64,000 bases of DNA from Eledone cirrhosa (lineage: Eukaryota), in NCBI GenBank assembly GCA_964016885.1, contig OZ024740.1, positions 310,248,001 through 310,312,000 of the forward strand, read 5' to 3'. The notes beneath the pieces are model-generated. The model searched no databases and was not told the origin of the DNA. It saw nothing but the letters and a program-made list of their open reading frames with translations. Positions 62,841 to 63,095 of the stretch are shown here, one piece after another. The stretch's first letter is position 1; each line of letters starts with the position of its first letter. The translations under genes and the position numbers were made by a program.

Positions 62841-63095
62841 GCGGCGATGAATTAGTTTTGCGAGGTTTTTTATATGAAATCGTGTGTCGAAACAGATATT
62901 GTTATGTGTTTGTCTATATTGTGTCTGTATTATTTTATTTTTGACCGCCGGTCAGTCAATGGCAACATTGAGGACCGAGTAAGTTAGATCGCAGATATAT
63001 ATATATAAAAGACAGCGAGAAGCGAAAACCAACCAAACAGTGAGTGTGTTCTGTTATTAATTCTGGCAATATTACGCAAATATGACCCTCCCCAA
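62841..63095 (+). mobile_element. Solo pLTR of the 19-25 kb PLE family with an inverted ORF-start segment
   Basis: 62905-63095 matches 24600-24787; 62841-62905 is the reverse complement of 20583-20647. Confidence 0.88.

Follow-up and report, generated by a model that had tools for sequence, protein, structure and literature searches.

A minimal two-armed Penelope-like insertion in Eledone cirrhosa and the case for reverse transcription primed from both target ends

We identified the 255-base solo copy at 62841..63095 of the window (the whole 64,000-nucleotide stretch of Eledone cirrhosa DNA analysed here, from contig OZ024740.1 of assembly GCA_964016885.1) as a minimal insertion with two arms, derived from a young Penelope-like retrotransposon that targets (TA)n; and strong counts obtained across this family speak for ordered priming from both ends of the target. 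The mechanism evidence consists of finished insertions in one assembly, and its best reading, which we regard as probable, has both ends of the target acting as primers at two fixed positions of the RNA, with the resulting cDNAs annealing afterwards. A single 255-base copy would by itself be ordinary debris of a young family; the worth of this one lies in the family behind it.

The solo copy and its source family

Positions within the element are counted from the last A of CCCCAA (position 0), with the first ATG of the ORF at -13. The solo copy reads, in order, (TA)n, inverted ORF start (+67 to +3), pLTR (-192 to +5), and (TA)n, with flanks of pure or near-pure (TA)n (Table 1); this is exactly the layout of the original prediction, which had a (TA)n run, the inverted stretch from 20583, the sense pLTR, and a second (TA)n run. 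The long-site arm is identical to the young source at 68 of 68 positions, and to the window stretch 20583-20650 at 66 of 68. The short-site arm is identical to the young source at 197 of 198 positions (its last five bases, ATATA, fit the target too), and it also matches the window pLTRs at 20392-20585 and 24604-24792, with 167 of 198 positions identical to either. Both arms are similar to the window element far above chance (BLAST E-values of 1e-25 and 5e-87), and the solo copy is very young, with 1 difference in 266 aligned bases from its source. The end texts quoted earlier for the parent, TCGCCG/TTAT and GCCAA/GTATA (slashes mark the boundaries), are found in the window element at 20641-20650 and 20576-20586; the true source ends read CGCCGC/TAT and CCCCAA/ATATA, and the two outer ends of the solo copy thus have 3 and 5 bases, respectively, in common with the TA target. 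These ends combine a minority short site (+5) with the commonest long site, and about 90 long arms (hand count) stop inside the same 15 bases as the long arm of the solo copy. A second, independent solo with the same build exists in the genome (locus L046). None of the read records listed spans the inner joint of the solo copy, and the reads are uninformative as to this joint.

Table 1. Features of the window (positions in the window; strand where assigned).
Feature	Position	Strand	Remarks
Left (TA)n target array	62447..62840		last 3 bases (TAT) fit element +68..+70 too
Long-site arm ("tail")	62838..62905	-	ORF start inverted, +70/+67 down to +3
Inner joint	62903..62905		3-base overlap TAT, common to both arms
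Short-site arm	62903..63100	+	pLTR -192 to 0/+5, including first ORF ATG at -13
Right (TA)n target array	63096..63176
Older broken partial tandem, same Penelope-like lineage	19303..24792	+	relative, not the source of the solo copy
ORF of older copy	20546..24282	+	N-terminal region, Asn-rich stretch, RT, CX4CX2C linker, C-terminal GIY-YIG
Hammerhead-like core (CTGACGA, 6-bp stem, GAAA)	20349..20376	+	first pLTR of older copy
Identical hammerhead-like core	24556..24583	+	second pLTR of older copy
Short palindromic family in (TA)n (family H)	8372-8568, 9518-9703, 30779-30908, 39718-39902, 56080-56214, 63359-63477		abundant in fetched loci
~186-base repeat	1537-1724, 13828-14011, 18830-19024, 38416-38605, 39074-39270, 44579-44763		A-/B-box-like motifs, often beside microsatellites
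~186-base repeat, further copies	44914-45098, 46667-46850, 52242-52423, 53902-54085, 57925-58110

A search of the animal's own genome found many copies at 99% identity, and the exact 32-base end pattern of the young family has 3,666 matches genome-wide. Units repeat in tandem with a period of ~4,117 bases, inverted arms and tails are present in the family, and an intact, stop-free RT/GIY-YIG frame of 1,217 codons is found in three units of one tandem array (G000:C1:307332537-307349370, covered by loci L031 and L032), which holds young units in both orientations, has one such frame at L032:51-3704, and is a candidate active source. The window element is an older relative: it consists of a 5′-cut unit (19303-20585) and a full unit reaching to 24792, with a short-type end in (TA)n, and its ORF, measured against the intact young frame, is broken into four frame pieces with 10 stops. 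The earlier tracing of the solo copy to an autonomous RT/GIY-YIG element in the window therefore holds for the family, but not for the window copy as parent, which is older, broken, and identical to the short-site arm at only 167 of 198 positions. Raw reads of two other individuals derive mostly from an older subfamily like the window element, and in a few of them +12 is connected back to -200, the arrangement of solo pLTRs in tandem.

RT motifs and the YIGET core of the endonuclease are visible in an alignment with 14 relatives, the closest named relative being a hypothetical protein of Octopus vulgaris (69%). Pfam reported a weak RVT_1 match (E-value of 6e-5, below the cut-off) on the window copy and no match on the full young protein. 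The element has the features of endonuclease-bearing (EN+) Penelope-like elements: a single ORF with RT and GIY-YIG endonuclease, tandem or partial-tandem pLTRs, an inverted 5′-cut arm, and a one-sided tail. Its linker, CTNRKCIIC (CX4CX2C), has cysteines conserved in the relatives and is followed by C..C..H..H around YIGET, which is the arrangement of Neptune and Nematis (a CX2-5CxxC linker before a C-terminal GIY-YIG with CCHH). The Hydra clade (CxCX5C linker, no CCHH, less than 3 kb, DKT) is excluded by the CCHH motif, the 4.1-kb unit, and the DKS motif; and Naiad and Chlamys, with an N-terminal endonuclease, are excluded by the C-terminal position of the endonuclease. Neptune and Nematis as described in PMC8557442 share with the young family the C-terminal endonuclease, the linker, the CCHH motif, and a preference for microsatellites, whereas their DKG motif reads DKS here; compared by motifs, the family fits either clade.

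Both pLTRs of the older copy carry a hammerhead-like motif, the first of which lies just upstream of the position at which the sense arm of the solo copy starts. Core and stem II are present; a three-way fold is predicted in the older copy and poorly in the young one (z-scores not significant), and Rfam returned no match on the young copy. We considered whether sense arms start at -192 by run-off at a ribozyme-cut 5′ end, and rejected this, since long TA adjoins one arm at the -200 tract versus eight at the -100 control; most arms cross the ribozyme-like site, and the joint at -192 is explained by the overlap of two TA stretches.

Where copies end and how arms are paired

The ends were collected from the first 100 matches of the 32-base pattern by position (60 loci), plus five loci from another search. 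This sample requires an intact stretch from -30 to +2; an insertion whose short-site arm is very short therefore shows up in it as a lone long arm (two cases). Among 96 anchored ends, 45 lie at +12, 8 at +5..+10, 11 at +53..+57, and 20 at +70/71; nine others continue into the ORF and three are scoring slips (two more rows proved to be slips on inspection). Genome-wide, 1,948 ends were counted at +12 and 1,123 at +70. Steps in RAD-seq depth track restriction sites, and were excluded from the end counts. The common stops are TA-like spots of the source: ATATA (+1..5), ATAT (+9..12), TA (+54..55), and TAT (+68..70). Ends were thus found clustered at TA-like positions of the parent (+12, +70, +5, and +53..57), as had been expected; but the idea that TA-likeness alone chooses the ends is not supported by two control tracts, namely a 5-base TA tract at +33..+37 with 23 ends genome-wide, and a 13-base TA tract at -100..-88 with three matches (one of them a mere expansion), the pattern for the latter being stricter than the other end patterns and therefore undercounting. 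Since equal or better TA tracts receive few ends, the position seems to be fixed, with homology only tuning the base within two windows, +1..+12 (short) and +53..+71 (long); the overlap with the target is 2-5 bases at each end.

In diverged related families (loci L187, L191, L193, and L197), the long end is still near +68, although the local sequence is different. Contigs of other organisms, searched for loose TA ends, gave +55 and +70 in one (X5), and +12 and +70 in another (X6), with one contig each. Three of ten ends at +37 pair with +12, and one pairs with +66. Hairpins following the end points (a 6-bp stem after +70 and a weak, bulged UUCG stem after +12) were considered and discarded, folding no better than shuffles (z-scores of -1.3 and +0.5).

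In a hand tally of the position-ordered sample (omitting three unreadable insertions: L038, the second copy in L085, and L087), a short end is combined with a long one in 42 of 43 two-armed insertions, and none has two short ends. The single exception, with two long ends (L134), is a near-duplicate of L135: the two (L134:1940-2030 and L135:1950-2000) lie 9.5 kb apart and have the left end and the inner joint in common, and their right ends are at +57 and +7. Lone arms are short in 17 of 19 cases, and long arms of merely 11-16 bases occur in 4 of the 42 short/long pairs. Arms of every length, down to 11 bases, are found in copies as young as the solo copy. Within one insertion, the two arms agree at every non-homopolymer diagnostic variant; for pLTR variants, 0 of 16 comparisons are discordant (p ~0.001 for a random draw).

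Arm lengths were compared in 40 pairs (L091 and L094, which are complex, were set aside). The long arm passes the short site in 30 of them, and the templates do not overlap in the other 10, nor in the solo copy; the short arm extends further upstream than the long arm in 27, and four pairs are symmetric with a palindromic centre. Direct inner joints (n = 17) overlap by 1.8 bases on average, compared to 0.64 by chance (0 of 20,000 draws), and inserted letters are present at 16 of 33 inner joints. About 91 long arms stop in the 15 bases from +13 to -1, or ~6 per base (hand count, leaving out 9 of 100 rows as duplicates, other families, and one slip); and about 64 stop in the 12 bases from +32 to +21 among the 100 listed of 222 rows, a rate of ~10 per base (hand count, leaving out ~36 of the 100 rows as indel variants). 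A third window was swamped by related families and was not used for rates. The idea that the long cDNA ran into the first primer was rejected, since long arms do not pile up at the short site.

Two features of the inner joints deserve separate mention. One joint (a 6-base overlap of inverted +13..+18 with sense -60) is shared by 12 of 100 rows from unlinked locations (e.g., L154 and L170), either because the best microhomology is reused or because a mini-element is itself mobile. An apparent "hot spot" of inner ends around -386 (L079, L096, L100, L118, and L126) is a length-variable, CA-rich patch absent from the reference unit.

Two proposed priming sites and the competing explanations

We propose that the two ends of a cut TA repeat both serve to prime reverse transcription, each at its own fixed position close to the ORF start. 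The enzyme would nick both strands, as has been seen in vitro for the anole element only. Priming would occur mainly at the short site and, as an optional second event, at the long site, because lone arms are mostly short and abortive long arms occur. The protein may set the two windows, with TA pairing selecting the base within each; and both primers may use one RNA particle, although the concordance of arms would also follow from the activity of a single source locus at any one time, or from conversion of one arm by the other. A long arm that passes the short site would either displace the first cDNA or use another repeat of a tandem transcript, and the two cDNA 3′ ends would then pair. For the solo copy, a short-site cDNA of ~195 bases and a long-site cDNA of 65 would have been paired through their TA-rich 3′ ends, by the 3-base overlap.

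The two-primer mechanism of the original prediction survives in that the pairing of one short with one long end fits two primers; the strictly non-overlapping layout of L1-type twin priming fails in 30 of 40 pairs. With so many long arms beyond the short site and no pile-up at it, plain L1-type twin priming without displacement misfits most copies; either the first cDNA was displaced, or the primers sat on separate repeats of one tandem transcript or on separate RNAs of a single source. A narrower version, in which one particle serves both target ends on one RNA, the upstream site is primed first, and the trailing RT displaces the leading cDNA, is a possibility to which we give less than an even chance. 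Displacement could be dispensed with if the target ends primed on two RNAs from one source, for example in an enzyme dimer with its subunits set to the short and the long site. Such a route has been proposed for L1 (PMC2837659), a dimer is predicted for the anole protein (PMC11167929), and both the 30 long arms that cover the template of the short arm and the absent pile-up would be explained; but the arms never differ at diagnostic variants, even though several sub-variants exist, and two equal particles would yield short/short pairs, of which there are 0 in 43. We consider two RNAs unlikely.

Long palindromes are unstable, and the solo copy could be the remnant of a longer inverted insertion that lost its centre later by microhomology repair, with which the overlaps at inner joints and the joint recurring in 12 of 100 rows would agree. 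The youth of the solo copy (1 difference in 266 bases) and the presence of short arms, down to 11 bases, in equally young copies speak against such a loss, which would also leave the pairing of the outer ends unexplained and need a two-site start regardless; we regard it as improbable. Self-priming, in which a single cDNA or antisense template folds and is copied back (PMC3846280), fits the four symmetric pairs with a palindromic centre, the agreement of arms at variants, and some joints (L015 and L033) that fall on the palindromic hammerhead-like stem. It is contradicted, in its simple form, for most copies by the 27 of 40 pairs whose short arm exceeds what the long arm could template; besides, a cDNA begun at the short site cannot template +13..+70, and the arms of the solo copy have no common template beyond 3 bases, and we hold fold-back to be very improbable. 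The same low standing applies to a tail left by endonuclease resolution of a DNA intermediate, with no second priming (PMC8557442): this would produce a one-sided tail by design, and recognition by the Drosophila endonuclease depended on the tail sequence, according to PMC11167929; however, the ends observed here share 2-5 bases with the TA target and move among TA spots (+5/+12, +55/+70, and rarely +37) as predicted by primer pairing, and both tail borders are starts of reverse transcription in vitro (PMC11167929).

Other repeats of the window and known elements

The original prediction saw in the solo copy the same mechanism as in "family H", which we take to be the palindromes starting at 8372, 9518, 30779, 39718, 56080, and 63359. 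These have a short end at TTCC/TA and a long end ~78 bases on, and most of 42 tail matches (from the window and the fetched loci; untallied) show the short/long build. The geometry is the same, but there is no sequence likeness (best E-value of 1.2), so the link stands as an analogy only, one that names no driver, and family H as a derivative of the Penelope-like element was rejected. The ~186-base repeat, presumably a tRNA-derived SINE in view of its A-/B-box-like motifs, has a fold-back form at 57989-58366. The window also contains a 459-base tandem pair between (CATA)n runs (56305-57269), 95% like the inverted stretch 25069-25419; AT-rich palindromes flanked by microsatellites (124-418, 5640-6115, and 53425-53599), unrelated in sequence to the Penelope-like, family H, and ~186-base families; and two stretches of ~1.2 kb (3500-4711 and 47186-48424), 70% identical, which are probably old copies of another mobile element.

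An inverted 5′-cut pLTR with an optional one-sided tail of 30-40 bp is standard in endonuclease-bearing Penelope-like elements (PMC8557442; PMC3846280), and the causes offered for the inverted arm and tail are self-priming (PMC3846280) or endonuclease resolution (PMC8557442). The young family resembles these elements in its head-to-head arms, one-sided tail, partial tandems, AT-rich targets, Asn-rich ORF insert, and solo pLTR pieces; it differs in a tail of 43-65 bases and in two windows with several TA spots each, and here the pairing (42 of 43) and the lone short arms (17 of 19) are quantified. For Poseidon of the green anole, two RT start sites in the ORF start were found in vitro to bound the tail, with both strands nicked and extended and with hammerhead cleavage unnecessary (PMC11167929); two start sites behind the tail were thus already known from another Penelope-like element, and in this respect the mechanistic reading given originally is not new. 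The start of Poseidon does not, by that account, differ between strands and has no homology to the cut DNA, which counts against the mechanism proposed here, whereas all common starts in the young family share 2-5 bases with the (TA)n target and the ends of any one insertion differ in site; the CX4CX2C linker is absent from Poseidon as described there.

L1 twin priming (PMC2837659) is alike in its primers from two target ends, its inverted arms, and its inner-joint microhomology, and the solo copy, with its outer ends at the two starts, has the exact non-overlapping layout of twin priming. Microhomology is observed at the priming sites (2-5 bases at the outer ends) as well as at the inner joints (1.8 versus 0.64). 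L1, however, is primed at its poly(A) end and at an internal position set by chance, and its arms are free of overlap, while in the young family the two sites are internal and fixed, and the majority of long arms overlap the template of the short arm. Neither the one-short-one-long rule nor twin priming applied to Penelope was found in the literature searched, on which older papers on Penelope structure may bear; and the available portion of a 2026 retrozyme preprint contained no mention of tail or priming.

PMC8557442 describes the origin of inverted arms and tails in Penelope-like elements as undefined, and PMC11167929 leaves whatever follows the first start without validation. Thousands of near-identical copies turn this question into counts: ends per insertion, lone arms, a common source, and the exclusion of fold-back in most cases. 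The young family also supplies an intact, recently active protein of a clade new to in vitro study, together with its preferred target and starts predicted to the base. If ordered double priming is true, a single process lacking a LINE-type primer for the second strand would account for the tail, the inverted pLTR, and the head-to-head arms alike, and the intact young frame would encode a (TA)n-specific, two-ended RNA writer.
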